A DNA stretch of 64,000 bases from Candidatus Heimdallarchaeota archaeon (GTDB lineage Archaea > Asgardarchaeota > Heimdallarchaeia > Heimdallarchaeales > Heimdallarchaeaceae), in contig DAOVET010000001.1 in NCBI GenBank assembly GCA_030668825.1, positions 32,001 to 96,000 of the forward strand, in the 5' to 3' direction. Below are positions 9,190 to 31,055 of this stretch, one piece after another (within the stretch, counting starts at the first letter, position 1; each line of letters begins with the position of its first letter). The position numbers and the translations under genes were made by a program. The notes below the pieces were generated by a model, which had not been told where the DNA came from, did not search any database, and saw only the letters and a program-made list of their open reading frames with translations.

Positions 9190-9229
9190 ACGGGGATAAC
9201 TTTTTATTTCAAAATCCTATCTAAGCATA

Positions 9230-12056: not shown

Positions 12057-12057
12057 T

Positions 12058-13056: not shown

Positions 13057-13150
13057 TTTCCTCTTTCCTTGTAATAATATTCATATTCTATAGATTTAAG
13101 CTTTCTGTGGCAAAAAAAGAGTGGAGGAGTGAAAATGACTCACCATTTCT

Positions 13151-13573: not shown

Positions 13574-13628
13574 TCTTTTTAAACAAATAAGTTATAAAAA
13601 ATTATTATCTTAATATAAAGAGGATTTG

Positions 13629-14225
13629 TTAGTCTTTTTGAAAACGATTGTAAATAGGCTTCAAAAGAGGAACAAATAAGAGAAGAGAAAGCATCATAAA
13701 AGAAGTTGAATCTGGATTTGGACGCAGTTCAAACAAAACCAACCATGCCGAACTATGGTCTTCATCTGTCGCTAGTGGTATGTTTTCTGTAAAAGTTAAT
13801 AGGCAACGAACATTACAAGTCCCCCAATTTGAATTATAATTAATAGTTAGGTCTTGTGTAATATAGCTACCAACAGTTGTGAATTCCTCGCTATAGGTTT
13901 TTGTTTCAATGTTACCAATTGTATAAATATCTATAGTTAAACCTATGTTTTTTATTCCTTGTACATTGCTTCCAAGCGCTCCAAGTTCTATAATGATTTT
14001 ACCTTCCGCTTTCTGATTATGATTCAGAGAAACATCATCAAAAGAAGGCTTAATTAAAATCTCTGTCCCACGAGTGGTTGTTACAGTATGTACTTCAAAG
14101 GTAAGCGCAGAAGGATATGAAACAGCTGAGAAAATAAATAGTAAGCCAATGAACAGAATTTTAATCTTTTTATTCAAATGTAATTCACCGCAAATACAAA
14201 GGAAGTAAATATATTTAAAGTGCAC
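13629..14225 (-). CDS. Secreted beta-rich protein with C-terminal membrane anchor
   Basis: Signal-like KKIKILFIGLLFIFSAV (true start probably downstream of the ORF start); C-terminal STSFMMLSLLLFVPLLKPIYNR. Confidence 0.65.
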   Translation of the reverse strand: MHFKYIYFLCICGELHLNKKIKILFIGLLFIFSAVSYPSALTFEVHTVTTTRGTEILIKPSFDDVSLNHNQKAEGKIIIELGALGSNVQGIKNIGLTIDIYTIGNIETKTYSEEFTTVGSYITQDLTINYNSNWGTCNVRCLLTFTENIPLATDEDHSSAWLVLFELRPNPDSTSFMMLSLLLFVPLLKPIYNRFQKD

Positions 14226-14242
14226 TATAAGTTACTTTACAT

Positions 14243-14476
14243 ATGCGAATGAGTAACGAAGGTAAAATCATTTTCAATCACATGGGAATAGAATATAGAG
14301 AATGCATAATAGAACAATGTATGTGGAACGTCAATTGGGAAGAACTACGATTGGCAGAAGAGACAGCGGGAAGACCTCTACCAAAAAAATTCGAGGGAAG
14401 GGTGTGTAATTGTGTTCCAGAGAATCCTATAGGTATTTTAGAAGCTTCTAAAGTACGATGCAATCCAGAAGGTTAA
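14243..14476 (+). CDS. Small cysteine-containing hypothetical protein
   Basis: 77 aa, five Cys (CIIEQC...CNC...C), upstream TATTTAAA. Confidence 0.5.
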   Translation: MRMSNEGKIIFNHMGIEYRECIIEQCMWNVNWEELRLAEETAGRPLPKKFEGRVCNCVPENPIGILEASKVRCNPEG

Positions 14477-14514
14477 AAAGGTTAATTATCAACTGTAGAA
14501 TTCATTTTCTATCT

Positions 14515-14751
14515 TTATATAAAATCTTCTAATCCTAATTGTTTCTTCGGTCTCATAAAATCCTTCAGTTCCTTATCCTTTTGGTCAATGAACCATTGTT
14601 TGATGAGCTTGGTTTCAGGATCAACAACAGACTTAGGTATCCAGATAGGATTATCAACAAAACCATCAATAAGAGCTAGAAAGGCTTTCTCTGTCTCAAT
14701 ATCTACTTTACCTAACTTAAAGTCTGAATACTTACTCCGATTCTCGTCCAT
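14515..14751 (-). CDS. Small virus/plasmid-type protein (ETEKA...WIPKS motif)
   Basis: IETEKAFLAL...IWIPKSVV...IKQWF pattern, which I recall from small mobile-element proteins. Confidence 0.6.
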   Translation of the reverse strand: MDENRSKYSDFKLGKVDIETEKAFLALIDGFVDNPIWIPKSVVDPETKLIKQWFIDQKDKELKDFMRPKKQLGLEDFI

Positions 14752-14905
14752 ATTAAAAAGAAAGAGGAGATTTCAGTTTATAATGATAGAGCAAAGATGT
14801 ATATTAAGTTGGATATTTTTTCTCCTTTTTGCATTTACTTGAATAATCTAAACAAATAACTTTATTGTATTCAATTTCCAATATCTTAGATATTATGGGA
14901 AATTT

Positions 14906-15559
14906 CTATCTCTTGTTTGAATTTTTCTTTCGGATTGCGAAAATCACAGTACATATCAACAAAATGGATAATAGTGGTAATGCAAAAGAAACATTTGTTT
15001 GTTCAGTAGGATAATAGTCAAATTCAATGTAAGTGACATTCATATTACCTGAATTCATCTTTATTAAAGCAGGTAGTTCTAGAGTAGTTATGTTATTTAC
15101 AAAATAACCTGTATTTATTGGTCTCCAGAGAGTATAATTTCCATCCTCGGGTTGAGATAAACCCGATTGATTAATATAAAATTTCACGTAACTATGTTCA
15201 ACAGTGATTCCTGGAGCATAAGAATAGTGCATTATTGTTGCATGAGCTATCATCAATGGATCAATTACCAGTGTTTGGTTACTAAGGGTTGCATTTATGA
15301 AGACTTTAGGATAAAAATCTGATAACTCAACTACTGTTTGATTTTCCTCAGCTCTATTCAGAATTTCTACAGTAACACCGATACCAAATAGAGTAGAATT
15401 TGGTTTATTATATAGATTAGTAATTACAGCAATTTCACTAACTTCTGATACTCTTGAAGCAATAACAGGAAGATTACCAGAAACTGATAAATTGATTGAA
15501 GAAACACATATGTATGCAATTAATATTAAAGTAAGATATTTTCCTAGTGGTTTAATCAT
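14906..15559 (-). CDS. Secreted glycoprotein-like protein with C-terminal TM anchor and basic tail
   Basis: N-terminal signal, several NxS/T sequons, TEQTNVSFALPLLSILLICTVIFAIRKK; SD-like GGAGG upstream. Confidence 0.75.
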   Translation of the reverse strand: MIKPLGKYLTLILIAYICVSSINLSVSGNLPVIASRVSEVSEIAVITNLYNKPNSTLFGIGVTVEILNRAEENQTVVELSDFYPKVFINATLSNQTLVIDPLMIAHATIMHYSYAPGITVEHSYVKFYINQSGLSQPEDGNYTLWRPINTGYFVNNITTLELPALIKMNSGNMNVTYIEFDYYPTEQTNVSFALPLLSILLICTVIFAIRKKNSNKR

Positions 15560-15571
15560 ACTTTTTCCTCC

Positions 15572-15620
15572 ATTTAATCTTTTTAGCAGACGTACCTAAT
15601 TAAAGTTAAGTACGAGGTTT
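15572..15620. terminator. Intergenic hairpin (CGTACCTAA...TTAAGTACG), possible terminator
   Basis: Imperfect inverted repeat just downstream of the S8 peptidase stop codon. Confidence 0.3.
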
Positions 15621-15628
15621 AATAATTC

Positions 15629-16825
15629 TTACCTTGCTAGTCTCCCCTCCGTATATGCCTTTCCAAATGCTAAATAAGCATCTATATATCCATATCCAAA
15701 TTTTTGATCAAAAGTGCTTCGCGAACTAGCATAGTATAAGATATCCAAAACTTTCTGGAGAGAAGGGTCAGTAGAAGAACCTATTCCATTGTGATAAGCT
15801 GTTATTATCAAAGCAATTGTTGCAGCCAAATAGGGAGTACTAAAACTGGTTCCAGCTCCATATTTCCAAATACCTCTATAGATTCCAAGTGATTGATCAT
15901 AATATGCATCCGTTAATATAGGTATACCATTCCCTGGTTCTACCCAGTTTACAATATGATTACCTGTAGTATAAGATTTATACCAAGATGAAAACCAGGA
16001 TTTATGATGTATCCATGAGTCGCTTCGATCTTCATGATCTATTGAACCAACAGCATACCACTCAGAGTAATATGATTGATACATGTAATTATAACCCCAA
16101 CGGTAATTAAGATAATTGTAATAGTTACCAGCTGCTGTAAGTAACATCACATTTTTAGTAATCAAACTTGCCCATTTTTGATGGATTGTTGTATCTTCAG
16201 TAAAATCAATTCTTGAGACCCAAGACCATGAAACTATATCGATATCCTTTGATGCTTGATTATCATCTATCCATTCCCAAATTTCATATTGTCCATAAGT
16301 AAATCCATAGGGATCATATAACTCTTCCTCTTCATTTTCCACATATAAATCGATAAAAATGACTTTTACATCTCTGGCGATGGAAGCTAGTACAGATATA
16401 ACTGCAAATCCATGTCCATGAAACACTTGATTGTCTAGAAATGGATCATTAGGATTAGTAATGAATTTTATTTCATTATAACATCTGAAATCGTTTGTTA
16501 AGAACCCAACAATATCCACATTCGCTTCAGGATTTTGTTCTAAAGCTTTCCATTCCAAATCAGTTAAACCATCATCAATTATTACGACAGTAACATAATC
16601 ATCTATAGTAACTCCATGCTCATACACAATTACATCTGTTTCTGTATACTTATATGCTGCATCTTGAAGATTTCCAACTTTTACTGCTGGATTTATAACA
16701 GGATCACCAATTGCTCCGCATTTTAACCAATCTAACATTTTGAGTTGATTATTACACATATCAGGTAAAGGTGCCAATCCAATACATACTATCAAGCAAA
16801 AGGAAAGAATTTTTTCATATTTCAT
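15629..16825 (-). CDS. Secreted S8 (subtilisin-like) serine peptidase
   Basis: Catalytic triad VIIDDG, HGHG, GTSFSTP; oxyanion AAGN; C-terminal FGYGYIDA; signal peptide. Confidence 0.88.
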   Translation of the reverse strand: MKYEKILSFCLIVCIGLAPLPDMCNNQLKMLDWLKCGAIGDPVINPAVKVGNLQDAAYKYTETDVIVYEHGVTIDDYVTVVIIDDGLTDLEWKALEQNPEANVDIVGFLTNDFRCYNEIKFITNPNDPFLDNQVFHGHGFAVISVLASIARDVKVIFIDLYVENEEEELYDPYGFTYGQYEIWEWIDDNQASKDIDIVSWSWVSRIDFTEDTTIHQKWASLITKNVMLLTAAGNYYNYLNYRWGYNYMYQSYYSEWYAVGSIDHEDRSDSWIHHKSWFSSWYKSYTTGNHIVNWVEPGNGIPILTDAYYDQSLGIYRGIWKYGAGTSFSTPYLAATIALIITAYHNGIGSSTDPSLQKVLDILYYASSRSTFDQKFGYGYIDAYLAFGKAYTEGRLAR

Positions 16826-17044
16826 TATTCTTGACTCCTAGATAGTAATTTTATCAAATTCTAGATCCTCTTGTTTCCTTAAAAACCTGTCTTATTTTCA
16901 GATGCTGCAAATGTGTCGTAAATTTCCAATATTCTTTCTTTCATTTCTTTCAATGTTGTTTTTACCACCTTTATAAATCAAACTCCTGATAATAGTTCAC
17001 CTACACTCCTTGTTTTACATCCCACTGAAAGTAAAAAAGGATAG

Positions 17045-17599
17045 TTGGTGAAAGAAGTGGGTAAGAACATGTATACAAGATTAAAAGAAGAAGTAAAGAA
17101 ATATCTCTCCTCTTTTAAAAGGTTTCAAGAAGAACTACAATCATTTAAAGAATTTAGAAGAAGTATTGATTTACCATCAGAGATGACAATAGATCTATCG
17201 GAAACTAAGGACCAGATGGAAGCTATTAGAAGATATGAAGCAAGATTACAGAAAGGAAAAGATGATCCAACTTGGTTTACTCTCACTAAGATGGTTACTG
17301 ATGTTTTTTTCGAGATGAAAAAAGAGTTTGAGGTATTCATGCAAGAACCTCAGTTTCTAGAAGGTAGAAAGTGTAAAAATCTAGTTGATTTAACTACTTA
17401 TGTAGTTGGAGAATTACAAGAACTAGAAGTTAAGCTTTACTCCAAACACATGGATGAAGTAGATTGTTCTGTTTGTAACCAAAGTCATCTTATTCTTGAT
17501 GAGAATAGAGCAGAACAGACATGTAAAAACTGTGGCATAGTAATTAGAGATAAGATATCCGAAGAGGAAATTAGTCTTAAATCACAACCTTTTTTCTGA
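17045..17599 (+). CDS. Coiled-coil protein with a C-terminal TFIIB-type zinc ribbon
   Basis: CSVCNQSHLILDENRAEQTCKNCGIVIRD matches the TFIIB/TFB ribbon CxxC...D...E..C..CG.V..D. Confidence 0.75.
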   Translation: MVKEVGKNMYTRLKEEVKKYLSSFKRFQEELQSFKEFRRSIDLPSEMTIDLSETKDQMEAIRRYEARLQKGKDDPTWFTLTKMVTDVFFEMKKEFEVFMQEPQFLEGRKCKNLVDLTTYVVGELQELEVKLYSKHMDEVDCSVCNQSHLILDENRAEQTCKNCGIVIRDKISEEEISLKSQPFF

Positions 17600-17663
17600 T
17601 AAAAACTTAAAAAGGATAAGGATAAATTCTACTAATCTTAATTATTACTTAAATAACGAATAT

Positions 17664-18242
17664 TTGGATGGAAAAATAATGACTATTGATGGTTATGATT
17701 TACAGGATGGTTTTACTAGAAATTATCATTCCTTTCAATTGACAGGAGAGCATACAAATACTACTTGGACACATAGAATCCTCGGTTACTTTGATAGACT
17801 GGGGAGAATGCTAGGATACGAAGTACAATTTGAAAAAGAAATATATGATTTAACTTGGTGGGATTATTCAATTAATCAAGAAAAAGGGAAGATTATTCTC
17901 CATGTCGAACATGAAAATTCAACAAATAAGAATAAGATAATCGAAGAAACTTTAGAATACAAAATTCTAGATTCTGAAGCAAAAATAGCTCTTGCTATCT
18001 GTTATCCTAATAATTCTCAAGATTTTGATGAAATTAAACTTTGGATTAAAAAGAATGTTAAAAAACGAATGAAAGCAGAAGAAGTAGCCATCATAGTAGA
18101 TGGTTGTTGTTATGGAGAAGAACCATATCATTTTGCAGTTCACATGATTACGAAAAAGAAATCAGAACTATACCTTTATGACAAAATAACAGTAAATGAA
18201 TATCATTGCTTAGAGTATAAGACAGAAGAAAATTACGCGTGA
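17664..18242 (+). CDS. PD-(D/E)XK-superfamily nuclease-like protein
   Basis: LGYEVQFEKEIYDLTWW...ILHVEHEN...K: a D...ExE(N) variant active-site pattern. Confidence 0.6.
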   Translation: MDGKIMTIDGYDLQDGFTRNYHSFQLTGEHTNTTWTHRILGYFDRLGRMLGYEVQFEKEIYDLTWWDYSINQEKGKIILHVEHENSTNKNKIIEETLEYKILDSEAKIALAICYPNNSQDFDEIKLWIKKNVKKRMKAEEVAIIVDGCCYGEEPYHFAVHMITKKKSELYLYDKITVNEYHCLEYKTEENYA

Positions 18243-18271
18243 TGGACGTATCGTGTAAAATTGTGAATTAT

Positions 18272-18502
18272 TCATTGATTTTGTATTCTCGCTTTTATTT
18301 TTTTTGTTTCTTCTTCAGATAAAATCTTATCTCTCTTCCCTAAACTACATTCTTTGCATGTTGTTGCTAGATTGTCTAGTGAATGTTCTTTTACTATTGA
18401 CCAAGGTATAATATGGTCAACTTGTAATTCAACTTCTGGAGCTGAACGACCACAAATTATACAAGAAAAATTATCTCGTTGTAGAACCTCAAATCTCAAA
18501 CT
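18272..18502 (-). pseudogene. HNH endonuclease domain, probably 5'-truncated
   Basis: LRFEVLQRDNFSCIICG...LQVDHIIP...NLATTCKECSLGK. Begins immediately after the stop of the upstream gene, and the usual final Asn (CN..K) is Ser. Confidence 0.7.
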
Positions 18503-19126
18503 TTAAGGAATTGAACTTTCATCATCTTTTTTGATTTTTGCTGTAAATACAAAACCCCCTAAACATACAAAGAAAATTCCAAATGTTAAGAGAAAAGCAC
18601 CAATAACCATCCACCACCATTCTAAGTCAAAAACTAATATCCATAATCCAACAATAGAAGAATATAGTAAGTTCAAGTAAGTACGTCCTCTGAATATCAA
18701 TCTGCAAAACAATTCCTTTCCATTCTTTGGAATACTATAACCTAGAATATATTTCCTGATTTCTTCATTATCAAATCCTTTTATTTGTAATCGAACAAAA
18801 TGCAGAAGCACGTATTCTTTCATCTCTTCGTACATAGTTGTAAGATTAAAATAATTGCACCCAATAACAAAGATTCCAATAAAAATTACAAAACCAATCC
18901 GTAGATAAGGTTCATCATTTTGTGTTGAAGGAAAATCGATCTGAATGTAACTTGAACCAAAATACGCTCCTAATGAAATTATTGCTAACAATGATGGGAA
19001 TACAGAAATAAATCTAAACTTTTGAGAATTTAGGAATTTAATTCTATTAAGAATCTGTTCATGAAGAGTCAGAAGTTGTTCTTGTGGAATATCATCGTTT
19101 TCTTTCTTATCATCTTTTTTTGTCAT
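18503..19126 (-). CDS. Membrane protein (about 4 TM helices)
   Basis: Two pairs of hydrophobic segments. Confidence 0.7.
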   Translation of the reverse strand: MTKKDDKKENDDIPQEQLLTLHEQILNRIKFLNSQKFRFISVFPSLLAIISLGAYFGSSYIQIDFPSTQNDEPYLRIGFVIFIGIFVIGCNYFNLTTMYEEMKEYVLLHFVRLQIKGFDNEEIRKYILGYSIPKNGKELFCRLIFRGRTYLNLLYSSIVGLWILVFDLEWWWMVIGAFLLTFGIFFVCLGGFVFTAKIKKDDESSIP

Positions 19127-19338
19127 TTTCTTTCATCGTAAACAGATAAATAGCACATATTTAAATCCCGATGTTTTTTTCACTAAATATAATAGATGTA
19201 AGAATTTTAATTTTTTTTCAATTTTCGGTATGTTTCTGATACTATACACTCCAATAATTCGTCAAAAACTACTTTTTATACTCAAATTTAAATAGAATAA
19301 AAAATAATTAAGATTGCTTTGAGTAATTCGTATATAAG

Positions 19339-19884
19339 TTGGGAAAAATCATGAATAACACTTCAAATAACAAAAGTGATGAACAACTACAATATGAATT
19401 AAAAAAACTAATAGACAAGTATAATAAATTCAAGAGAGACAAAGGTCGTTCAGGTTTAAATAAATTGAATGAAGCAGAAGTAAGAAAAGACTTCATTGAT
19501 CCTTTCTTTGCAATTCTTGGGTGGAATATTCATGATTCCTCAGAGTATGGTACTGAAGAACATATCAAAGGTGTAGGAAGAGCAGATATCATATTAAGAG
19601 ATTCCAAGCTTATTTCCACAAAACCTCAAAGTCTTGTTTATGTTGAAGCAAAACGGTTTGGTATTCTTCATTCTAAACCACTTGATACTAAACAAGTTGA
19701 TCTTTTGGGAAAATTTGTTCCTGATTGGACAGAAGAAGATAGACAAGCAACTAATTATGCAATGGCAAAAAACATAAGATGGGCAAGAATTAATGGAATA
19801 TATCCTATTGTTGTCAGTCAAGAAATCAACAATCAGATAATGGGTAAAATAACATTTGAAATTATTGCACATTCAGATATTTAA
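19339..19884 (+). pseudogene. HsdR_N-like restriction endonuclease N-terminal domain, truncated (type I/IIG R-M remnant)
   Basis: NEAEVRKDFIDPFFAILGW, GRADIIL, VEAKR, QATNYA..IRWA. The sequence then departs from the expected W.ILTN and stops; no methyltransferase follows. Confidence 0.75.
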
Positions 19885-19910
19885 TATTTTGTTAATTAGG
19901 TTCAGAAAAT

Positions 19911-22256
19911 TTATAATAAATTAGCTAAATCATTTAATACCTCAAATTCTGAAAAATCGGTTCCAATTCTCTCCACTAATCTATATATCATTTCACTACT
20001 TGTGCTTTTTAATCTAATTTTTTCTCCAGCAATTTCTTCTAAAACTTCTTCTAAAGAGCCCAATTTCCAAATAAATATATTATCTTCTAAAAGGAGTTTG
20101 GTAAAATCATTTAGAATTTGTTCATTTGCTAAAACATTTTCTAGATTCTTATCAAGAAACTTAGATAATTCTTCTTGTTCTTTGAATTCATTTAGCATTT
20201 TTCCAAGAACAGAATCCTTGAAAGGTAAATATTTCTTTTTTGTATCCCCTTTAGTTTTGTTTGCAATTGGAAAAGCTGCATCTAGATCTACTACTATTAA
20301 GGCTTCAACCTCAAGTTTTTTTATTAGTTTCCAAACAATTGGAAGGTTTCTAATTCCATGTAATTCAATTATATCCCAACCATTTGATTCTAATTTGAAA
20401 TTCTCAGGAAAATTAGTCCCCAGTTCTTCAACGAATAATTTATCGTTTGGTCCTTCTACAATCATAACTTTGTTAGAAAAGAGTAGTTTATTTACACTGT
20501 CGATTCTTTTTAGGAATTTACTTGCTTTACCTTCAGATGACTTTCTTTTTGATTCTTCTTCTTTGTCATCAATCTCAGATATGTTAAATCTTATTAGTTT
20601 TCCATATACACCTTTCCAGATTTGTGTTCTGAGAAAATCGTTAATGAAATATGGGGAATGAGTAATCAAAATATAAGTAGGAATAATCTCTTCATTTAGA
20701 TAGTTCGATATTGTGTTAATCACTTTTCTTTGTAGTTGTGGATGTAATGCTCTTGCTGGCTCATCAATTATGATTGTTTTATCTCCTCTTTCAAATAAAG
20801 AAGTTAGAATCATTAAAGTTTCATAAGCTCCACTTGGTGCTTCATGCATCTCTATTGGTACATTCATGCTATCTGTAAATTGAATTAAGGGAGCTCTTTC
20901 TATAACATTTTCTTCTATATCAGCCCATTTAACATTTTTTTGAATATCTTCATTATATCCTGTTGTTGATGTTGTTCTAATAACATCCCCAATTATAAGT
21001 TTAGGATAATTTTCTGTTACTCTAATTGGTTCTTCTTTTACATAAACATCAAATTTCATTTTGAAAAGATTCTCAAATTCTTTCTTTAAATCATAAAATC
21101 TCTTTCGTTCATTCTGTATAGAAGAATTTTTCCATCTATAAAGTGTTTCAGATAATTGGTTTATGGTGAAATAGCTGATACCCGAATAATCTTCAGCAAT
21201 AAGACCTCTATGTTCAGGTATAATAATTGTTCTGTTTTTAAAGAGTTTTTTAATAATGTTGCAAAAAATAATATGAGAACCTTCATTTTCAATCGGATAA
21301 AACGCTTTAATTTTTTGAAATACTTCATATGAAAGATTTTTAATTTCACCCTTTCCATACTTTAGATTCAGATTTGGTAAAGTTATCTTATAGGAAATAT
21401 CTGCATCAAATGTACTTTCAAGCATTTTGTTTACAACATTAGGAGAAATTTTAGCATCATCTTTTCTCAAAAAAATATGCATTGCTTTTAGTAAACTTAG
21501 ATTAACATCACTGTTCTTCTCATTACTTAAACCATCATAATCTATTAGATAGCATCTAGATTTCTGAAAAACAGATATTGAAGGTATCAATCTAGTAACA
21601 TCTGCTTTAAGATTAACTTTTATTTTCTTAAATAGTTGACCGATATTAGAATGCATATCATTTGATAAAAGAATCCTCTTGAATTCTAATAGTCTATTAC
21701 CTTTCAAAAAACCAAGTTTAAAAGTAAAATCAGACTTTTCAAGGGTTTCTTTAAATTTCTCAAAGTTATTTTTATCCAGTTTTGAAAAAAGTTGATTTCT
21801 TTTTTCTTGAATTTTCAGCACTGGGGTTTGTTTAGTCTCAGGCAATTTAAGATTTAAAATATTTTTATTAAATTCATATAGATTATTGATTTCGTTATCA
21901 TCAATATCAAATATAATTTCTCTGATGAACATTTCCTTGAAATCATTAAATCTGTTTGATTCTTCCATCTCTTCTATTTCTCTATAGATACTCACGCATA
22001 ATATTGAACCAAGTAGTTCCTGCTCAAATTTTGATAGTTCAAGTTCTATGTTTAGGTTAATATCTGGATCATATTTACCTAAATCTACAGAGTTTTTTTC
22101 TAAACACAAACCCACCAGTTTAATAGCTCTTACTACATTGGTTTTTCCAGATCCATTAGGTCCAACTATGAAGTTGTTTCCGTTGTTAAAAGTGATTTCT
22201 TGGGTATCTTCTCCATAAGACAGGAAATTCCTGAGTTGGAGTGATGTAATTTTCAT
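19911..22256 (-). CDS. OLD-family ATP-dependent nuclease (ABC ATPase + TOPRIM)
   Basis: LRNFLSY, GPNGSGKT (Walker A), IIDEP (Walker B), THSP, VEGPND and DLD (TOPRIM). Confidence 0.88.
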   Translation of the reverse strand: MKITSLQLRNFLSYGEDTQEITFNNGNNFIVGPNGSGKTNVVRAIKLVGLCLEKNSVDLGKYDPDINLNIELELSKFEQELLGSILCVSIYREIEEMEESNRFNDFKEMFIREIIFDIDDNEINNLYEFNKNILNLKLPETKQTPVLKIQEKRNQLFSKLDKNNFEKFKETLEKSDFTFKLGFLKGNRLLEFKRILLSNDMHSNIGQLFKKIKVNLKADVTRLIPSISVFQKSRCYLIDYDGLSNEKNSDVNLSLLKAMHIFLRKDDAKISPNVVNKMLESTFDADISYKITLPNLNLKYGKGEIKNLSYEVFQKIKAFYPIENEGSHIIFCNIIKKLFKNRTIIIPEHRGLIAEDYSGISYFTINQLSETLYRWKNSSIQNERKRFYDLKKEFENLFKMKFDVYVKEEPIRVTENYPKLIIGDVIRTTSTTGYNEDIQKNVKWADIEENVIERAPLIQFTDSMNVPIEMHEAPSGAYETLMILTSLFERGDKTIIIDEPARALHPQLQRKVINTISNYLNEEIIPTYILITHSPYFINDFLRTQIWKGVYGKLIRFNISEIDDKEEESKRKSSEGKASKFLKRIDSVNKLLFSNKVMIVEGPNDKLFVEELGTNFPENFKLESNGWDIIELHGIRNLPIVWKLIKKLEVEALIVVDLDAAFPIANKTKGDTKKKYLPFKDSVLGKMLNEFKEQEELSKFLDKNLENVLANEQILNDFTKLLLEDNIFIWKLGSLEEVLEEIAGEKIRLKSTSSEMIYRLVERIGTDFSEFEVLNDLANLL

Positions 22257-22477
22257 AAATATTTTAGTCTCAACTTAATTTATAAATCATACGATTGAAT
22301 GTTCATTTAAAATTCTAATCAATCAGATTCTATGATTGGTTGGTTTAAAGAAAGAATCTATCTCCACTTTATTGATTTCCAAATTTTTAATATCAATTTC
22401 TCTGCTAAACATAAATAGTACTACTACGAAGATCAATATACAGTAAGAATCAAATAAAAAGTGTAAATTCTGATGTT

Positions 22478-22849
22478 CTAATACTGTCTTTTTCTATTAA
22501 GAAAGTTTGCTTCTACTTCTGCTTCTATCTCTTCTCTTATCTTCTCCTCCATTCTTTCAGCCCATTTATTGAAGAGATACTTAAATGGTAACACTTCTAT
22601 TAAGAATAATAGTAAGAATATTCCAGAACCTATTACTCCCAATATTCTCAATAATATCATCCATATTGCTTCCCCCAAAACTGTCTTCTCAAAATAGAAT
22701 GCTGCTGCTGTTCCGCAAATAAACACTACTGCTCCTATGAACGCACCTAATCTATCTTCCCAGCTAAATACTTTTTCTCTCTCTCTTCTTATCCTTTCTG
22801 CGTATCTCTTTAATTCAGTATTTTTTATTATCATATAAACCCAAACCAT
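22478..22849 (-). CDS. Small two-TM membrane protein
   Basis: Two hydrophobic helices flanked by charged segments; strongly purine-ending codons. Confidence 0.65.
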   Translation of the reverse strand: MVWVYMIIKNTELKRYAERIRREREKVFSWEDRLGAFIGAVVFICGTAAAFYFEKTVLGEAIWMILLRILGVIGSGIFLLLFLIEVLPFKYLFNKWAERMEEKIREEIEAEVEANFLNRKRQY

Positions 22850-22951
22850 ATCTTTTTTTCATCTTTCTACTCATCTCTGCAGGATGTGTTTCTTCTATTA
22901 TTATCACCATCCACATGACGAAAAATACTGTCAAATATCCCATTATCTCTA

Positions 22952-23266
22952 TCAACTTATCCCCTCCACTAACAGCTCCCCTATTGTCCTCTCTGTCATC
23001 TCAAAGAAGCTCATTATCCCCTCACTCTCATGGATCAGTTCATGTAGTTTCTTTAGTTTCACTTCCCTTCCCAGATTATCCTCGAAAGCTATCTCATAAC
23101 TCCATGCTCTCTTCTCCCTCTCTTCTATCATCCACTCCTTCTGTTCTTCAAAGAAGTTCTTCAGGAAGAATTGTAATCCATATACTGTCGTTATCTTCTG
23201 TCTTGTTAGTTCTATCCTTCCCTCTTTCCCTTCTACATAGATTACAAAGACCATATTCCAGTTCAT
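22952..23266 (-). CDS. Hypothetical protein
   Basis: 104-aa ORF with the same skewed codon usage as 22478-22849. Confidence 0.6.
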   Translation of the reverse strand: MNWNMVFVIYVEGKEGRIELTRQKITTVYGLQFFLKNFFEEQKEWMIEEREKRAWSYEIAFEDNLGREVKLKKLHELIHESEGIMSFFEMTERTIGELLVEGIS

Positions 23267-23349
23267 TTTGCTCTATTTTGCTTATCAGAACTTTGGTTTA
23301 TAAAGTAGGGAAAGTTTTTTTCTCGAGTTTTTAAATCAATTTACAGATT

Positions 23350-23432
23350 AGTGGTTGAAGCTGGCACAAACCCTTGAAATTCATATATCTAAAAAATATA
23401 ACTCATCACACTTTAGCTGGCTTCGACCCACT
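23350..23432 (+). other. Long imperfect inverted repeat with G-U pairs (structured RNA or ssDNA hairpin)
   Basis: AGTGGTTGAAGCTGGC (23350-23365) pairs with GCTGGCTTCGACCCACT (23416-23432): 16 pairs including 3 G-U and one bulged C, followed by a pyrimidine run. Confidence 0.55.
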
Positions 23433-23665
23433 CTTTTCTTCTCTCAATCTCCTTCATCAGTTACTTATGGAAGCAAAATTAAAAATCTGGGTTTTAGATT
23501 GATAAAATAGAGAAAATTAGTGAATTTTTCAACCTTCCTCTCAAACACCTGAAAAAAATAGACTTCTAACTTATCTCACATTTAGTATTTCTATATCCTT
23601 ATTTTATTTCGATAGAGGAAAATCAAAAATGCAAAAATCAAACAAACTATTCTTGTTCAAGTATA

Positions 23666-25333
23666 CTATCTTCTTCTTTTAGAACTAAATCGGGAATAAC
23701 CAAATACAATTAGTGGGATTAGTACAATTAAAGAAAGAAACGAGTAGTAAATATTATTATTCCTATAAACTGGAGGTTCAGAAAGAGGATAAAGATCTTG
23801 TGCATTTGCAAATCCATCAATATAATAGCTACCAACTACCACAAAATAGTCTGACCAATAATTTCCTTCCTCATTTTCTTCATCATACCAGAGATTATCT
23901 CCATCATCTCTCGCTTGGGAAGTACCGTAATACTGGTTGTTATTGTAAAAGGAATTATGGTGAACAAGATTGTTGACTGAATCTTCATCTAAAAATACTC
24001 CCCAAAAATAATTATTAGTTAAAGTATTGTAAGTAATAGAGATATTTGATGAGTTTTCAAGCACTAACCCATGATTATTATTGCTTAAAATATTATTTTC
24101 GATTAATGAATTACTTGTTTGCACAAGTAGAATCCCTTGTTTTTTATTGAAACTACAGTTATTGTTCATGATGGTTATTCTATCACTAAATTTAACATGT
24201 ATTCCTATTAATGTTTGATCCAAGACTTGATTTTTTATCATGAATTCAGAGCAATTGGAAATAAATAGCTGACCATAGATTGGTTTTGTTATTTTCAAAT
24301 TATTTTGGTTTGTAAAATAACCGTACTCTTTTCCATTTATCATATTGTTGTACACTGTGTAAGTATGATAATCTGCTGGATTTAATTCGTAAAAATAATA
24401 GTCACACTCTGTTAATGTATTCCCAATAAATTCAGAAAATTCTGAATCCCTTACATATATACCATTAGACTCGGTAGTAATTTCATTATTTATAACAGAG
24501 ACATTTCCACTATATACTACTGTTAATCCTATTCCTCCTCCAAAACAGTAATTGTCTGTTACTACAGAATCATTTGAATGAGATAATCGAATGTTAAACT
24601 GAACATTATTGAAACAAGAGTTATTTGCAACTAAAGCTGCTCTAGATGTATGAAGATATATCCCTCCTAAATAAGAATTGTTATGAAGAGAATTGCTAAC
24701 AACGGTAGCGAAGAAACTGCTACCAAGAAGTAATCCTCCTTTGAAATTATCTGAAATATTATTACCATAGATATAACTAGAATTACAATTATTAAGGAAA
24801 ATACCTCCTTCATTACTCTTTGTACATGTATTATTTACGATTCTAATATTTGGTGAAAATATTACATGGATACCATAGCGTAAACCTTCATTACATGTAT
24901 TTTTGATGAGCTCTATACCTTCTGCTTTACTGATCTCCATCCCAGATTTTTGATAATTCTGACACAAATTTTCCTTAATTTTGATACTGTTAGGTGCTAC
25001 ATTTAGAATATAGATACTGTAGTTATCACCATCCAGAAAACAATTTTGGATCAGGAAGCATTTGGTAGTATAAGATATTGATATACACGCTTCTTCGGTT
25101 GTAGTAATGTTAAGATTCTCTATACGGTAAGGATCTACAGCTGTTCCTTCTCCTGGTAAGCTGTAAAGAGAGATATTGGTATCAGATTGTATGACAATAG
25201 GTATCGAGATTATATATGAATTAGAATTTAAATTTCCACTATCTGTGGTAGCTGTAGTAATTTCTATACTCCAACTTTTCATTAGAATTAAACTGAAACA
25301 CACCACTACTAGTAACCCTTTCTGATATTTCAT
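23666..25333 (-). CDS. Cell-surface right-handed parallel beta-helix (NosD/CASH) protein with C-terminal TM anchor
   Basis: GEGTAVDPYRIENLNI, repeated NN..GI.L, GNYWSDY, DLYPL, TM plus KRRR. Confidence 0.88.
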   Translation of the reverse strand: MKYQKGLLVVVCFSLILMKSWSIEITTATTDSGNLNSNSYIISIPIVIQSDTNISLYSLPGEGTAVDPYRIENLNITTTEEACISISYTTKCFLIQNCFLDGDNYSIYILNVAPNSIKIKENLCQNYQKSGMEISKAEGIELIKNTCNEGLRYGIHVIFSPNIRIVNNTCTKSNEGGIFLNNCNSSYIYGNNISDNFKGGLLLGSSFFATVVSNSLHNNSYLGGIYLHTSRAALVANNSCFNNVQFNIRLSHSNDSVVTDNYCFGGGIGLTVVYSGNVSVINNEITTESNGIYVRDSEFSEFIGNTLTECDYYFYELNPADYHTYTVYNNMINGKEYGYFTNQNNLKITKPIYGQLFISNCSEFMIKNQVLDQTLIGIHVKFSDRITIMNNNCSFNKKQGILLVQTSNSLIENNILSNNNHGLVLENSSNISITYNTLTNNYFWGVFLDEDSVNNLVHHNSFYNNNQYYGTSQARDDGDNLWYDEENEEGNYWSDYFVVVGSYYIDGFANAQDLYPLSEPPVYRNNNIYYSFLSLIVLIPLIVFGYSRFSSKRRR

Positions 25334-25387
25334 TTTATCACTCTTGTTTTATCTTCTAAATCTCACTTATTCACAATTTATTCTGAA

Positions 25388-27109
25388 TTATCTCAATTTC
25401 TTTTCTTGATTATTGAATCTTTTTTTCCTAATTGTTATTTGGAAATAACCATAAATCATCAGAGGAATAATAACAGCAAACGAGAAAAAAGCATAGTAAA
25501 TATTCTTATTTCTATAAACTGGGTGTTCAGAAAGAGGATAAGGATCTACAACACCAGCAAAACCGTCTATACTGTAGTTTCCAACTCCTGAATAGTCTTC
25601 CCAGTAGTTCCCCTCCTCTTTTTTCTCATCATACCAGAGATTATCTCCATCATCTTTTGCTTGGGATGTACCATAGAAGTTGTTGTTTATGAAAACGTTA
25701 TGGTGTATTGAGTTATTAGCAGAACCACCACCTAATACCACTCCCCATAATCCGCTATTTGTTATCACATTGTATGTGATCTCATTGTATGAGGATTGCT
25801 CTAATAAGATTCCATACAACCCATTATATTCTGAAGTGTTGTTAATTATATTCACTCGTTCAGATTTAAATAAATAGACTCCACTTCTGCTATTAAACTT
25901 GAAAACTGATTTTGAAATAGATATGTCCTCGCAATAATATAGACTTACTCCTGTAGAAAAACTACTTATCAACTGGTTCTTAATTTTGATGTTATTACAA
26001 TTTACAAGATGTAACTGATTAAAGATTGCTTCTGAAAGAGTAAGGTCATTTTCATCAACAAAATACCCGAAAAGTTTGTCATTAACGTAATTGGAAGTTA
26101 CGTAGTACTTCCTGAAATCTTCCACAGTTGATTCGTATATTCTAAACCCACAATCATAAAGCATATTATTGCTGATTATTGAGTATTCCGCATCCTTTAG
26201 ATATATACCTGTATTACTCCCTGCACAGATATTGTCAGAAACAGTCACGTTACCGCCTAAAACAACAATAATCCCATATATTTCACCAGAACAAATGTTT
26301 CTTGTTACTAAAGAGAAATTTGAGCTGTGGATATCTAAATTAGGTTGCCGATTATTATAACAGATATTATCAGAAACTGTCGATGTATAACACCTAAGTA
26401 ATCTTATCCCTCCATGTAAATCATTTAAGTAACAGCGATTATGCATAATAAGAGAATTCGTACAATCATCCAACACAATCCCTCCTTTTTTATTCTCATA
26501 ACAAGTATTGTTTTTAACTATGCTTTCAGAACTTTTATCTATAAACATCCCGACCCAGCTGTTATCAAAACAAGTATTAAGCTCGATTTGACAATTTGGT
26601 GAATCTTTGATATGTATACCAAAATAGCTATTTGAGTAACAGGTGTTATTAATTATCAGTGAGTTTGATGAATTATAAATACGAATTCCTCGTATAGAAT
26701 TACCAATACAAATGTTGTTTTCAATTTTTGCAGTTTCATTTTTAACTGATTCTATTACAATACCATTTACAGATGCGTTTACAAAACAATTTTGAATTAG
26801 AAAGTGTTTAGTTGTATTGTAAACATAAATTCCCCTTTCTTTTGTTGTAGTTATATTGAGATTTTCAATTATGAAAGGATTTACAGCTGTTCCATCACCT
26901 AGAAATCCATAATCTGTGAAATTAGAGTCATTTGTAATAACGATTGGTAATGAGTCAATATAGGAAAGAAAAGGTTGATAAGCTTCTTTAGAAGGAAATC
27001 TATAACATGTATTCTGAAATTCAGTTTCTTTAGATTCTACTGAGGTAAACATTGACAGTAACAAAATACAAAAAATTGTAACTGTTACATTCTTTCTCAT
27101 ATAACCCAT
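25388..27109 (-). CDS. Cell-surface right-handed parallel beta-helix (NosD/CASH) protein, tandem paralog
   Basis: GDGTAVNPFIIENLNI, beta-helix repeats, GNYWEDY, DPYPL, TM plus basic tail; colinear with 23666-25333. Confidence 0.88.
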   Translation of the reverse strand: MGYMRKNVTVTIFCILLLSMFTSVESKETEFQNTCYRFPSKEAYQPFLSYIDSLPIVITNDSNFTDYGFLGDGTAVNPFIIENLNITTTKERGIYVYNTTKHFLIQNCFVNASVNGIVIESVKNETAKIENNICIGNSIRGIRIYNSSNSLIINNTCYSNSYFGIHIKDSPNCQIELNTCFDNSWVGMFIDKSSESIVKNNTCYENKKGGIVLDDCTNSLIMHNRCYLNDLHGGIRLLRCYTSTVSDNICYNNRQPNLDIHSSNFSLVTRNICSGEIYGIIVVLGGNVTVSDNICAGSNTGIYLKDAEYSIISNNMLYDCGFRIYESTVEDFRKYYVTSNYVNDKLFGYFVDENDLTLSEAIFNQLHLVNCNNIKIKNQLISSFSTGVSLYYCEDISISKSVFKFNSRSGVYLFKSERVNIINNTSEYNGLYGILLEQSSYNEITYNVITNSGLWGVVLGGGSANNSIHHNVFINNNFYGTSQAKDDGDNLWYDEKKEEGNYWEDYSGVGNYSIDGFAGVVDPYPLSEHPVYRNKNIYYAFFSFAVIIPLMIYGYFQITIRKKRFNNQEKKLR

Positions 27110-27273
27110 GCAAAATCCTCTTCACTCAAAATAAGGCAGATATTAATTTTTAAAGATTTTGACTGCATTTTAATTAATTTCCTTTTTCGAATACTATTAT
27201 AAGTGTTTAAGATATATTATTCTAGATAAAAAGACGGTTCAAACATATAGAAGACTTATCTAAAGGTGAAAGA

Positions 27274-28725
27274 TTGAAAACCAAATTCAAAGTGGCTATA
27301 ATTGCCGGAGCAATAATAGGGCTCGTAAGTATAACTATCCCTACTGTTTTTTTTCTAATACAACCTCCAGAGATAACCAATGGTAATAATGACAATAAGA
27401 GTATTGATAATGTTATTTACCCAAATCCGCTTTTTTACCGAGGAACAATTTCAGATATGATGCTTGAAAGTGACGACAGAGTACAGTTTATTGTAGGTAG
27501 CTATAATGCCACCTATGTCACCTATCCTCATTCACCTGCTTATATAATTTTAGATCACAAAAATCAAACGTGTACATATAAAGAGATGTTCCCAGGAATT
27601 ACTTCAGGAAATATGCATCAACTAAAAATAGGTTTAGGTCCAAATAATGAGTCAATTGCTTATAATTTTTTTACCAATCCTTTCGGTTATCTAGTGGCAT
27701 ACTTGTACAAAACAAATACTCTTGGGAGATGGATATTCTATCCTGCACTTTCTGATAAACCCATGCCTTACGGTGGTTTTAATAGGAGAAGTGTGTATAA
27801 CTGGAATTTTATGCCTTCAGGAAAAATAAATCTCGCTTTCTTATATCAAGGAACTTATAATACACCTGCAATCTATAATGAAACAACAGATAGTTTTTTC
27901 TTCTTGAGCGATGTTTTTGAGGAAATTAAAGATCAAGTAATTCTTAACAGGTATGGAGACTTTGCAGTTGTAGATTCAAATATTTTCTACTTTTGGTCAG
28001 AATATATAAATGAGTACAACTTTCATCCTTATCTAGCTATTAAATGGCAGGGAGAAGGATGGCAACTAACAAGAATAGGAAATGAATCAGAAACATATAT
28101 GCCCATCAGTATTATTCCTCAGAAAAATGTAGTGAATATTTTTTATCATGATTCTGGTAAAAGCAGTTTGAATAGTAGACTCTATCACACCCAGATTTAT
28201 AATTCTACTAGTAATACTACAACACTTCTACACCAATTTGATGGGAGAACTGTTTTTCGTCAAGATTCTGTATGTGCTCTCTCTCAAAATGAGTATGTGT
28301 TCTTGTATACTAAAGGGTCGTATGTACTAAATGCACAAAGAGATCTGTTTATGGGTTATTATGATGGTAAAGAATTCTATGAATTTATGCTTACAGATAC
28401 TCCACAACTTCTTGAACATCGAGCACATTGTGAATTAGGGGAGAATTACATTCATTTGGCTTGGGAAACTAGTATAGACAAAGGAACTGGAATCTATGAC
28501 CCAATGCAGACTAATCTTTTCTATAATAGAATATCCTTAAAGGAAATAAGACTGTCAAAAGAAACTGTTATAATACCATCAATGATAACCATAAAGAATG
28601 AAAACCATAGAACAAAGCTCTTTAACGATTGGACTTTCTTAAAACTTACTATCTATATTGCTCTGTCCATCAAAATCCTTTTTTTTCCAGTAAAATTCTT
28701 GTGTGAGATACAGGGATTCTTATGA
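27274..28725 (+). CDS. Membrane-anchored extracellular beta-rich (possibly propeller) protein
   Basis: N-terminal TM, aromatic beta-strand repeats (IHLAWE, LFYNR); SD-like AGGTGA before a TTG start. Confidence 0.6.
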   Translation: MKTKFKVAIIAGAIIGLVSITIPTVFFLIQPPEITNGNNDNKSIDNVIYPNPLFYRGTISDMMLESDDRVQFIVGSYNATYVTYPHSPAYIILDHKNQTCTYKEMFPGITSGNMHQLKIGLGPNNESIAYNFFTNPFGYLVAYLYKTNTLGRWIFYPALSDKPMPYGGFNRRSVYNWNFMPSGKINLAFLYQGTYNTPAIYNETTDSFFFLSDVFEEIKDQVILNRYGDFAVVDSNIFYFWSEYINEYNFHPYLAIKWQGEGWQLTRIGNESETYMPISIIPQKNVVNIFYHDSGKSSLNSRLYHTQIYNSTSNTTTLLHQFDGRTVFRQDSVCALSQNEYVFLYTKGSYVLNAQRDLFMGYYDGKEFYEFMLTDTPQLLEHRAHCELGENYIHLAWETSIDKGTGIYDPMQTNLFYNRISLKEIRLSKETVIIPSMITIKNENHRTKLFNDWTFLKLTIYIALSIKILFFPVKFLCEIQGFL

Positions 28726-30417
28726 AATTATTATTGTTTTCATTAAATTGGTTTGAACTAAGAAATATTCAGGGTCTGTATTGTCGTTATAACAAGTGAG
28801 CACAAAATTAATTGTAGAATCTACAATAAATGAAGTGTTGAGAAAACCTCTAATTTGATAATTACCTGATTTTTGGAGCACAAAAGAGTAACCTCGTGAT
28901 CTATTTAAGATTAAGTATTCCAATTGCGGTTCTTCTGCAATGATTTCAATATAACTAAATAATCTAAATGTGTCAAATAACAAATTATTGTCACTATCTA
29001 TAACTATAGAATCGACTCTAATAATATCTGCACGCATAAAATCTGGAACATTGTGGTAAATATATTGGAAATTAATTTCCATTACAAAAGTAGAATTTTC
29101 ATATAATTCTACTTCTTTAATCGTTATTGATGAATTACTAGACCAATTCATACCATAAGCATCAGCAATTTCAAAGTTGTTGACAGTCCAACCATCACAA
29201 ACTTCTTCTCCTTGGATGATCAAATTACTAGGAAGCCCTAGAACTAAAATTATTAGAATAAAGGAGATTGCTTTTTCAATTTTTATCTTTTTGGAATAAT
29301 TAATTGGAACGATTTTATCCACTTCTTTAACAATCTTATCCTCTTCTTCAGTCTGATCAGTTTTTTTTCTCATTTTTAGTTTATGTATTAGAAATAGCAA
29401 ACTCGAAGATAGTATCAATGGAATTATAAATAATAAAAGAACCATAATAAAACCTGCTAGAAATTCGCTTGAAATTGCAGAAATGTCCAAATTGAGATAT
29501 GATTCTAGAATAAGGGATAAGAGTAAATTGTGAAATAACAAATCGCTCCAGAAAAATATTGTAAACAAGGTTATAGCTATAAAAAATATACTAGCTATCG
29601 AAAGTGAAATAATTTTAATTTTTCGTGATTTTGCTATTAAAGGTTCCTTAATCTTGCTTTGTAGTTTTGAAAGTATTAAAAAGATCCCACTTGTCACAAA
29701 AATATAAGCTAAGTAGATACCCAAAGGACCAACTTTTCCAGTAATAGGTAAAGTAAAAAGACAAGCAGAACCGAACATTCCAACTAAGCTAAAAGTATAA
29801 ATCCCATAGAATGGAATAAATGCAATTGTTTGATCAACTAGTTCTTCTTTACTATTTGTCCCCTTATGTTCACTTGAGCTCCTTGTTTTTTTCGTAGAAA
29901 TAATTAAGATCACCCCTTTTAGAAACAACAATAAAGGAGTAATAAATATTAAGAACAAGAAAAGAACATTCAAATTATTAGTATAACTATTTGCTCCACC
30001 AAGAAACATTATAGCTCCCCCTGCCCCATGAGACGAGTATTGTATGTGAGCTATTAGTCTTACTAGCTCATCTATATGATATATTGCGAAAAAAACACTA
30101 AATAATCCCACTTTTCTTGGGTAGAGTCTAGAGAGAAGGAAACCAGTGAGTACAAGAATTGCACTTAATATATAATTGGCTAAAGTGTTTTTTTCATTTG
30201 AAATATATGCGTCTATCTCGACCCAATTATATTCTATTGTTCCATTAGCTGAAGATATATCCTGAATTTGAATCGTTTGATCATATAGTGTTAACTTTGA
30301 TACTCTTATAGTTGCAATAAGTATAAAACCAACAATTATCAAAACAGAGAGTATTAAAACAATATAATCCCAACATTTATTCTTGGAAATGTAAAAATGC
30401 ATTCTTGTTTTCCTCAT
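28720..30417 (-). CDS. Polytopic membrane protein with a C-terminal extracellular domain
   Basis: About 9 hydrophobic segments, then a soluble beta-rich tail. Confidence 0.7.
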   Translation of the reverse strand: MRKTRMHFYISKNKCWDYIVLILSVLIIVGFILIATIRVSKLTLYDQTIQIQDISSANGTIEYNWVEIDAYISNEKNTLANYILSAILVLTGFLLSRLYPRKVGLFSVFFAIYHIDELVRLIAHIQYSSHGAGGAIMFLGGANSYTNNLNVLFLFLIFITPLLLFLKGVILIISTKKTRSSSEHKGTNSKEELVDQTIAFIPFYGIYTFSLVGMFGSACLFTLPITGKVGPLGIYLAYIFVTSGIFLILSKLQSKIKEPLIAKSRKIKIISLSIASIFFIAITLFTIFFWSDLLFHNLLLSLILESYLNLDISAISSEFLAGFIMVLLLFIIPLILSSSLLFLIHKLKMRKKTDQTEEEDKIVKEVDKIVPINYSKKIKIEKAISFILIILVLGLPSNLIIQGEEVCDGWTVNNFEIADAYGMNWSSNSSITIKEVELYENSTFVMEINFQYIYHNVPDFMRADIIRVDSIVIDSDNNLLFDTFRLFSYIEIIAEEPQLEYLILNRSRGYSFVLQKSGNYQIRGFLNTSFIVDSTINFVLTCYNDNTDPEYFLVQTNLMKTIIIS

Positions 30418-30585
30418 TCTTGATTAGATGTTATAAGTACAAACGCGCTCTTAAAAATTCTTTGGAACATTGCTATAGCGCAAAACATAGAATCCATTTT
30501 ATCATTCTCGCCCTTCAAATTATCATAAAACTAGTGGAGTAGCAATGATATATGAAATTCTATCTTTTTACAAGTAATATAAATT

Positions 30586-30712
30586 GACACCGGTGGACAG
30601 GGGATGTTTACCTATCTCCGTCCCAAATACTACTCTTGACATCCCTGTTATCATCTGCGGTAACAAATTTGACCTTAACGAAGCTCGTACTCTTGATAAA
30701 GATACTATTTAA
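30586..30712 (+). pseudogene. Relic of a second, different Rab-like GTPase 3' half (G3 and G4 motifs, internal deletion)
   Basis: Manual translation: DTGGQGMFTYLRPKYYS* (30586-30639), then in another frame DIPVIICGNKFDLNEARTLDKDTI* (30638-30712). Confidence 0.8.
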
Positions 30713-30725
30713 ATTATATTCGTCT

Positions 30726-31055
30726 CAAGAAGTTTTCAGACAAATCAGAAGTAAATATTTCTTTGGAAGCAAAGGTGCTTTAGCTATTTGTGATGCCTCT
30801 AATTCTGAATCTTTTAAGAATATCCCCTCGTGGGTTGAATCTTTTAAAAAGGAAGTGGGAGATAAGCCTATCATTTTTCTAGCAAATAAATGTGATTTGA
30901 AGGATCAACAAGTCACTGAGGATGACATGAAACAATTGGTTAAGGATTACAGTAACACTGAATATCTGTATTCCTCTGCAAAAGATGGAACAAATGCTGA
31001 AAAAGCTTTCATCAACTTAACCAGACTTATGGTTGCTGAAGAAGATATAGTATAG
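30726..31055 (+). pseudogene. Displaced 3' half of the Rab-like GTPase at 11529
   Basis: QEVFRQIRSKYFFGSKGALAICDASN...NKCD...SAK...AEEDIV: 109 aa, colinear and 84/109 identical (hand count) to 11727-12056; no G1/G2 upstream. Confidence 0.92.
30753..30796 (+). repeat. Right att-like repeat
   Basis: 43/44 identical to 11754-11797. Confidence 0.85.

Follow-up and report, generated by a model that had tools for sequence, protein, structure and literature searches.

A decayed fragment of a second GTPase paralog at the edge of an island inserted in the G3 codons of an archaeal small-GTPase gene

Few eukaryote-like gene families of Asgard archaea are as expanded as the small GTPases. In the stretch of Candidatus Heimdallarchaeota DNA analysed here (64,000 nucleotides in length, hereafter the window), a preliminary description had noticed, in unannotated DNA just inside the right end of an island, a relic of a different Rab that begins at the G3 motif and lies close to a displaced GTPase half. 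What is this relic a copy of, how did it come to lie within another GTPase gene, and are the G3 codons a place at which such genes are repeatedly broken and rejoined? The answers bear on how the Asgard GTPase family diversified. The word Rab was the label of that description; the Pfam families matched by the GTPases here are Ras, Roc and Arf only, and we refer to the interrupted gene of the window as GTPase Y and to the parent of the relic as paralog X. Our main reading, to which we assign a probability of roughly 0.6, is that the relic is what remains, dead and truncated, of a spare 3′ half for X carried by an island, and that islands with such cassettes occur at the G3 codons of both X and Y.

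Sequence and parentage of the relic

The right end of the island contains the following features:
30517–30585 (no strand assigned): unplaced segment of 69 nt that separates the cargo from the relic
30586–30633 (+ strand): relic part A, which covers G3 and switch II of X and begins at the D codon; 37–42 of 48 nt identical to 12 X genes
30634–30735 (+ strand): relic part B, from P-D-I-P via G4 (NKFD) to ...RLKKF, downstream of a 95-nt deletion
30725–30735 (+ strand): 11-nt overlap, TCAAGAAGTTT, which holds the L-K-K-F codons in the X cassette and the G-Q-E-V-F codons in resident Y; here relic and orphan meet

Translated as it stands, 30586–30636 gives DTGGQGMFTYLRPKYYS followed by TGA, and 30638–30709 (frame +2) gives DIPVIICGNKFDLNEARTLDKDTI followed by TAA at 30710–12; an I codon and TAA lie directly upstream of the relic's D codon. 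The G3 motif DxxGQ and switch II are present (DTGGQGMFTYLRPKYY, 30586–30633) and align to the 12 X genes. In this alignment the first base of the relic is the first base of the D codon in DTGGQ, which is precisely the start that the preliminary description had proposed. The G4 motif NKxD is found as GNKFDL, at positions 104–125 of the 162 in the Pfam Ras profile. The two pieces are colinear and share their strand with the orphan GTPase half at 30726–31055, and the spacing from G3 to G4 is correct when the 95 nt missing between 30633 and 30634, by alignment to X genes, are counted in. An internal deletion or frameshift had been postulated; the lesions are real and can now be placed exactly, as this 95-nt deletion plus a 1-nt deletion at 30709/30710 that generates the TAA at 30710–12. 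Since the relic continues in the shifted frame through 30735 (LNYIRLKKF, 30709–30735), the 13-bp spacer once thought to separate it from the displaced half is itself relic sequence: relic coding fills the gap and overlaps the orphan by 11 nt.

Because the pieces are short (one of 24 residues), the relic falls below the Pfam cut-off and profile support alone is weak. The 43-aa frame that contains the second peptide matches Ras (PF00071) with E 0.062 and 13.3 bits, below the curated cut-off of 21.6; the full-length relatives of the relic match the same profile with E 4.6e-40 to 2.1e-39. A profile made from the genome's own GTPases retrieves the relic at E 0.05 among 71,409 frames, at positions 122–144 of 193. 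The profile-HMM check that had been suggested for the two peptides therefore yields a G4-peptide match at the right place in the profile at a sub-threshold score, and it is the DNA matches that are decisive. Aligned to full-length GTPase genes over 103 columns, 30634–30735 is 85% identical to that of G018 (E 7.8e-28), 84% to that of G024 and 83% to that of G013, and 30586–30636 is 78–89% identical to the G3 region of the same three genes at the DNA level. The relic resembles neither GTPase of the window, as had been claimed: against Y, 8 of 16 residues agree at G3, and identity is 36% over 22 residues at G4. Judged by these alignments, 30586–30735 is a decayed copy, from G3 to past G4, of a second Ras-family GTPase, paralog X. 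An assembly artefact was ruled out by contigs that carry the relic together with its junction, from runs X1 (28962–30955, 1 difference), X12 (30362–30754) and X13 (30295–30755), the last two extending just 29–30 nt beyond the relic/orphan junction; X1 may be the sample from which the genome itself derives.

Paralog X is a conserved GTPase of ~195 residues, encoded between a 283-aa gene and a CBS-domain gene, and is intact in 10 of the 10 relatives whose locus was fetched. The genome of the window (G000) holds of its own X a 3′ piece only, on contig C3 (5110–5388), where the gene is cut by the contig end; the relic is 67% identical to this piece and therefore was not copied from the resident gene. 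Part B of the relic (30634–30735) matches the island-side complete X of G013, G024 and G018 at 85–88 of 102 nt (83–86%), the resident-type X (G009, G012, the C3 piece of G000 and both orphan halves) at 65–68 of 102 nt (64–67%), and the X of more distant species at 68–75 of 102 nt. Part A, over its 48 nt, is 77–88% identical to X genes, with a resident-type gene as the best, and does not discriminate the two X types. By the identities of part B, the relic is of the island-borne X type. The parent paralog that the preliminary description had proposed to look for is thus found, and X is itself a G3 insertion site, in G013 and G024.

The 5′ half of X and its 283-aa neighbour are absent from the G000 assembly, and contig C1 (12497–13435) carries an 84% relative of an X-island surface protein. 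The X locus of G000 may be island-bearing as well.

The island in GTPase Y and its uninterrupted alleles

The island and the two halves of Y that flank it are laid out as follows:
11529–12056 (+ strand): complete GTPase Y (175 aa), resident 5′ half plus island-borne 3′ half; Pfam Ras, E 6.5e-37
11709–12056 (+ strand): island-borne Y 3′ cassette; the foreign tract begins between 11706 and 11717 (A-I-W-D codons)
11753–11797 (+ strand): 45-nt stretch, 43/45 identical to 30752–30796
12058–13056 (− strand): 332-aa gene adjoining the cassette, common to X-type and Y-type islands
13151–13573 (− strand): 140-aa remnant of a 520-aa island gene, 89% identical to residues 384–520 of the G013 island protein
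13574–30516 (no strand assigned): island cargo with an S8 peptidase, two NosD/beta-helix proteins, membrane proteins, an OLD-family nuclease, a 75-aa HNH protein and a TFIIB-type zinc-ribbon protein (Pfam)
30726–31055 (+ strand): orphan resident Y 3′ half, from the Q codon of G3 to the stop; Pfam Ras positions 58–160, E 6.1e-19

In G009, G012 and G013, Y is one continuous gene that corresponds to the 5′ half of the window gene followed by 30726 onward; the downstream flank is matched too at the G012 locus, and the Y of G018 (contig C24) likewise runs uninterrupted through G3. From these uninterrupted genes in relatives it follows that ~19 kb (about 11709–30725) were inserted at the G3 codons. 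In run X12, 11716 and 30725 are connected on one contig via 9 resident-type letters at a depth of 13.1; the short side of this joint is 21 nt only, and the contig may therefore come from a close relative. Identity to the uninterrupted Y of G009, G012 and G013 is 170/180 to 171/180 over 11529–11708 and 184–192 of 259 over 11798–12056, and the orphan half agrees with the uninterrupted G009 gene at 324 of 330 nt. On this evidence the gene is completed by the first 340 nt of the insertion, a foreign Y 3′ half. The complete Y (11529–12056) and the orphan (30726–31055) have 300 nt in common at 75% identity. The Y genes on G012 contigs C94 and C11 (both starting inside Y) were set aside as those of another co-binned relative in an ordinary context.

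The left boundary of the foreign tract is marked by positions 11708, 11717, 11718, 11720 and 11726, all mismatched to each of the three uninterrupted genes, and the recoded A-I-W-D-x-G-G codons are common to the island-bearing Y of G000 and G024. As the foreign tract of G000 begins 10–20 nt upstream of the point at which the orphan starts, ~12 resident nt are missing there, which is not what a conservative site-specific crossover leaves. Within the Y repeat (300 nt at 75%, including the 43/45 core), sequence types switch at G3, at least 26 nt upstream of the core; a crossover within the 45-nt core was ruled out, both copies changing sequence type upstream of it. The 45-nt stretch (11753–11797 and 30752–30796) has flanks that are 72–77% identical between the foreign and resident Y halves, and is equally conserved in Y genes that have no island; its conservation could reflect a constraint at the nucleotide level or gene conversion.

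At the right end, homology of the island to contigs of G011 and G018 stops at 30516; to the right part of the window's island, that of G018-like strains is 90–97% identical. A source for the 69 nt that follow (30517–30585) was sought, and no match was found in 41 genomes, G000 or the fetched loci. The relic comes next and, as its sequence reads, is fused to the orphan Y half via the 11-nt microhomology at 30725–30735.

A second Y island, that of G024, has a left end like that of the window (cassette plus 332-aa gene, 86%) and a different right end, at which the orphan begins at the W codon and no X relic is present. Its complete Y is resident-like to about residue 140 and cassette-like at the end only, so that homologous recombination between the two copies does occur; this crossover near residue 140 suggests plain homologous recombination.

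Islands in paralog X, G3 breakpoints and the search for an enzyme

The islands in X measure 9.4 kb in G013 (contig C101) and 2.4 kb in G024 (contig C21), and in both the order is complete X, island, orphan X half from G3 (Pfam positions 52–158) and CBS-domain gene. Empty X sites, at which X directly abuts the CBS-domain gene, are seen in five genomes (G009, G006, G014, G007 and G019). The G013 X island starts with the X cassette, followed by a 419-aa relative of the 332-aa gene (59% identity) and then by the 520-aa gene, of which the last 137 residues are 89% identical to the 140-aa frame of the window. From this order, set against that of the window, the same module follows the X cassette there and the Y cassette here; in G013 a member of the 332-aa family adjoins the X cassette, and in G024 one adjoins the Y cassette.

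Relatives of the 332-aa gene occur in 5 of the 25 genomes of the genus. The 332-aa protein matches no Pfam or PHROG family, its 419-aa relative of G013 has a double zinc ribbon (DZR, Pfam), and the protein atlas search returned no usable match for the 520-aa protein. A search with the 332-aa family gave four genome loci and three loci in metagenome collections, all of island types already found and none of these seven with a recombinase. Viral contigs searched with Y and X gave 26%-identical GTPases of giant-virus contigs, or nothing.

An X fragment in a rearranged island was observed in G016 (L034, 2480–3085) and in metagenome contigs (L046, 2866–3198; L044, 485–817), the rearrangement being seen in G016 plus three such contigs. 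It begins near residue 90 and is fused in antisense to the 5′ part of the 520-aa gene, with a 333-aa gene downstream in the same direction. By its arrangement, this is an inversion within the island with a breakpoint away from G3. The orphan X half of G013 and that of G024 are directly preceded by 57 nt from an S8-peptidase gene (DPLT.SQLQ.VLKYTG; L012, 6825–6890, − strand; L011, 8960–9015, + strand). At this right junction of the X islands, the peptidase fragment is joined to X over a 9-nt overlap at the D-T-G-G codons.

Where orphan GTPase fragments begin was tabulated across four genomes (G000, G013, G024 and G016), the last three having 124 matches to the Ras profile between them. In G000, only the orphan Y half and the relic lie clear of contig ends; two other candidates there, C16:5982–6137 and C3:5110–5388, were ruled out as genes cut by contig ends. 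In the other three genomes, the orphans clear of contig ends comprise two X halves (52–158), one Y half (49–160) and one X piece from position 72, which sits in the rearranged G016 island; three further partial Ras hits lie at contig ends (G013, G024 and G016). The clustering at the W, D and Q of G3 that the preliminary description had predicted is borne out, with four of the five orphans away from contig ends beginning within W-D-x-x-G-Q (Pfam positions 49–58). As a recurrent breakpoint, however, G3 is supported by two paralogs only and, as the X orphans of G013 and G024 share one junction, the number of independent events is probably three or four. The relic begins at nucleotide 1 of the D codon, no more than 1 nt away from where the orphan X halves begin (nucleotide 2 of that codon). 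This clean D-codon end is, in our reading of the junctions, the strongest hint at discrete G3-delimited cassettes and at a G3-directed process; plain homologous recombination would not be expected to make the same G3 boundary twice.

Neither integrase, transposase nor any other recombinase was found in the islands examined (Pfam; PHROGs on 10 proteins). The Pfam scans took in the window island and the complete G013 X island in full and the larger frames of the G016-type islands (L044/L046); among the small frames in unannotated gaps, Pfam detected only the 75-aa HNH. For the tyrosine recombinase family PF00589, the whole G000 assembly (2.76 Mb, 90.6% complete) gave 0 matches at E <= 1, and 14 of 14 control genomes gave matches. 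Two candidates for the agent were rejected. Relatives of the HNH protein occur in 4 of 25 genomes and are absent from the G013 and G024 contigs that carry an X or Y island, so a homing enzyme common to the islands it is not; the TnpB gene at 10148–11404 is external to the island, and the Y island of G024 occurs without TnpB. A circle or excision joint, from 30725 back to about 11709–11727, is not among the listed contig joints of four runs, in which contigs drop rare forms.

A possible history of the relic and its nearest parallels

In this Asgard genus, variable islands sit inside X and Y at the WDxGGQ (G3) codons. Each opens with a diverged 3′ half of its own, by which the gene is kept whole, and the resident 3′ half is left as an orphan on the island's other side. 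As we envision it, insertion would be directed to G3 by a putative recombinase or nuclease, and the island would spread between strains by homologous recombination via the 5′ half of the gene and the orphan half. The Y site would once have harboured an X-type cassette whose 5′ end was discrete and lay at the D codon; this would have been the head of a second, tandem element or else a former cassette of the same element. A deletion across the 11-nt repeat would have fused this cassette to the orphan Y half and would also have removed the first 13–14 nt that are still kept in the G024 orphan, and later deletions of 95 nt and 1 nt would have killed the frame of the relic. Arrival of the X cassette at Y, microhomology cut-back and decay, in that order, is the succession that we infer to be the most likely.

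The suggestion in the preliminary description that an element carries 3′ cassettes for more than one GTPase paralog is largely supported, by the shared module, by the insertions in both X and Y and by the type of the relic, and is held back by the missing recombinase and the few events; with no recombinase found, that the element moves is something we infer. The islands may instead be passive and flexible, each gene having undergone one illegitimate event that was passed on by flanking homologous recombination, with the relic a repair or rearrangement patch joined by microhomology. We regard this as possible though unlikely. The fruitless searches for a recombinase agree with it, as do the right junctions of either kind with their microhomology (11 nt in G000, 9 nt in G013/G024), right ends that are a patchwork of short fragments (69 nt, then the relic), crossover points that differ between genomes, a weak X12 contig joint (31057 to 12151), a foreign tract that extends upstream of G3 in both X and Y, and rearrangements away from G3 such as the X fragment from about residue 90 in G016 and the metagenome contigs. 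Passive islands would require, however, that several independent illegitimate events struck two genes no more than ~15 nt from G3 (where the orphan X halves, the relic and the orphan Y halves of G024 and G000 begin), and they leave unexplained both the clean D-codon end and island-borne type of the relic and why each island brings a diverged 3′ half that fits its gene and leaves that gene whole.

Two further explanations deny the relic any link to such cassettes. That it is a decayed, tandem, X-like resident paralog beside Y, unrelated to the island, seems very improbable: tandem GTPase genes do exist in this genome (C60), but the uninterrupted Y of G009, G012 and G013 has nothing between its halves, the relic lies on the island side of the junction, and the resident X is elsewhere, in the 283-aa/CBS context, with the C3 copy of G000 67% identical to the relic. 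Chance resemblance or mis-assembly is hardly credible, given 103-column DNA matches of 83–85% with E down to 7.8e-28, G3 and G4 pieces that are colinear on one strand, and the same sequence in contigs of runs from different studies; the Pfam E value of 0.062, taken alone, is what would speak for it. The reading of the relic as a dead X cassette can also be carried further than we would press it, to an integrase-free class of mobile island that homes to G3 by a putative nuclease or recombinase, uses exchangeable 3′ halves as its address label and switches target by cassette swap, the relic being the fossil of an X-to-Y switch. We regard this bolder version as unlikely. If true, integrase-free islands homing to G3 would be a ready engine for modular exchange of GTPase halves in a lineage ancestral to the eukaryotic GTPase families, and an enzyme specific for G3 DNA, should it exist, would represent a new kind of targeting system.

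Displacement of 3′ ends at a conserved motif, with orphan modules left downstream, is known from the toxin genes Rhs and CdiA. Here, too, a new 3′ coding end arrives with cargo at a conserved motif and the old end becomes an orphan that starts at the motif, and the relic plus orphan recall the orphan arrays that successive arrivals leave in those genes. Unlike them, the genes concerned are small GTPases rather than toxins, there are no immunity genes, and what is carried is an island of several genes. Two other known processes are intron-less homing, driven by free-standing homing endonucleases, and illegitimate recombination facilitated by homology. With these the islands share breakpoints in a highly conserved motif, target codons that are recoded in the carrier allele, and joints with homology on one side and 9–11 nt of microhomology on the other. 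In contrast, no endonuclease is consistently linked to the islands here, and classical homing replaces the target segment without an orphan copy, whereas an orphan is present here.

In some integrative elements and genomic islands, among them those of tRNA genes, the attachment site lies within a gene and the incoming DNA brings a replacement for the displaced gene end; dusA-specific islands are reported as another case (PMC4482086). The present islands resemble these in that incoming DNA supplies the missing part and the target gene stays whole, in the partial gene duplicate that flanks the island and in the island-free alleles of relatives. They differ in that no integrase is found, the target is the mid-gene G3 motif rather than a gene end, the duplicate is ~330 nt long and only 75% identical, and ~12 resident nt are lost in G000. 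Among Asgard archaea, the portions of the literature used here describe aloposons and proviruses at tRNA genes (PMC8813620), Atabeyarchaeia elements together with a variable, possibly mobile region encoding Arf-like GTPases (PMC11529989), and Tn7-like elements (bioRxiv 10.1101/2025.07.27.667033), which have Asgard hosts and strain-variable islands in common with our case. None of the passages drawn on from these three papers describes G3 insertion within a GTPase gene, or 3′ halves that are spare or orphaned.

Two GTPase genes emerge as hot spots at which multi-gene islands enter mid-gene, at the most conserved motif. The foreign 3′ half joins the working protein, which makes allelic chimeras of a resident 5′ half and a ~25% diverged 3′ half. 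Shuffling of halves between paralogs, which the preliminary description thought could generate chimeric GTPases, found no support: no X/Y chimera was seen, and every complete gene combines X with X or Y with Y halves. The relic is the sole evidence of a cassette of one paralog at the site of the other, a precondition for shuffling between paralogs.

With its surface proteins, peptidases and defence-type nucleases, the cargo bears on strain-level variation in these uncultured archaea. The 75-aa HNH endonuclease (18272–18499, − strand), a weak type I restriction HSDR_N match (19339–19884, + strand) and a 781-aa OLD-family ATPase/TOPRIM nuclease (19911–22256, − strand) look like defence cargo. 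Two tandem, paralogous NosD/right-handed beta-helix surface proteins (23666–25333 and 25388–27109, both − strand) are visible as the direct repeats D2, D3 and D6 at a spacing of 1746–1749 nt. Elsewhere in the window, TnpB-type genes (Pfam OrfB_IS605, Cas12f1-like TNB) lie at 10148–11404 and 3–872 (both − strand); the syntenic stretch of G024 is without TnpB, with the counterparts of 9000–10103 and 11474 onward contiguous, and 10148–11404 is therefore a separate, recent IS insertion.
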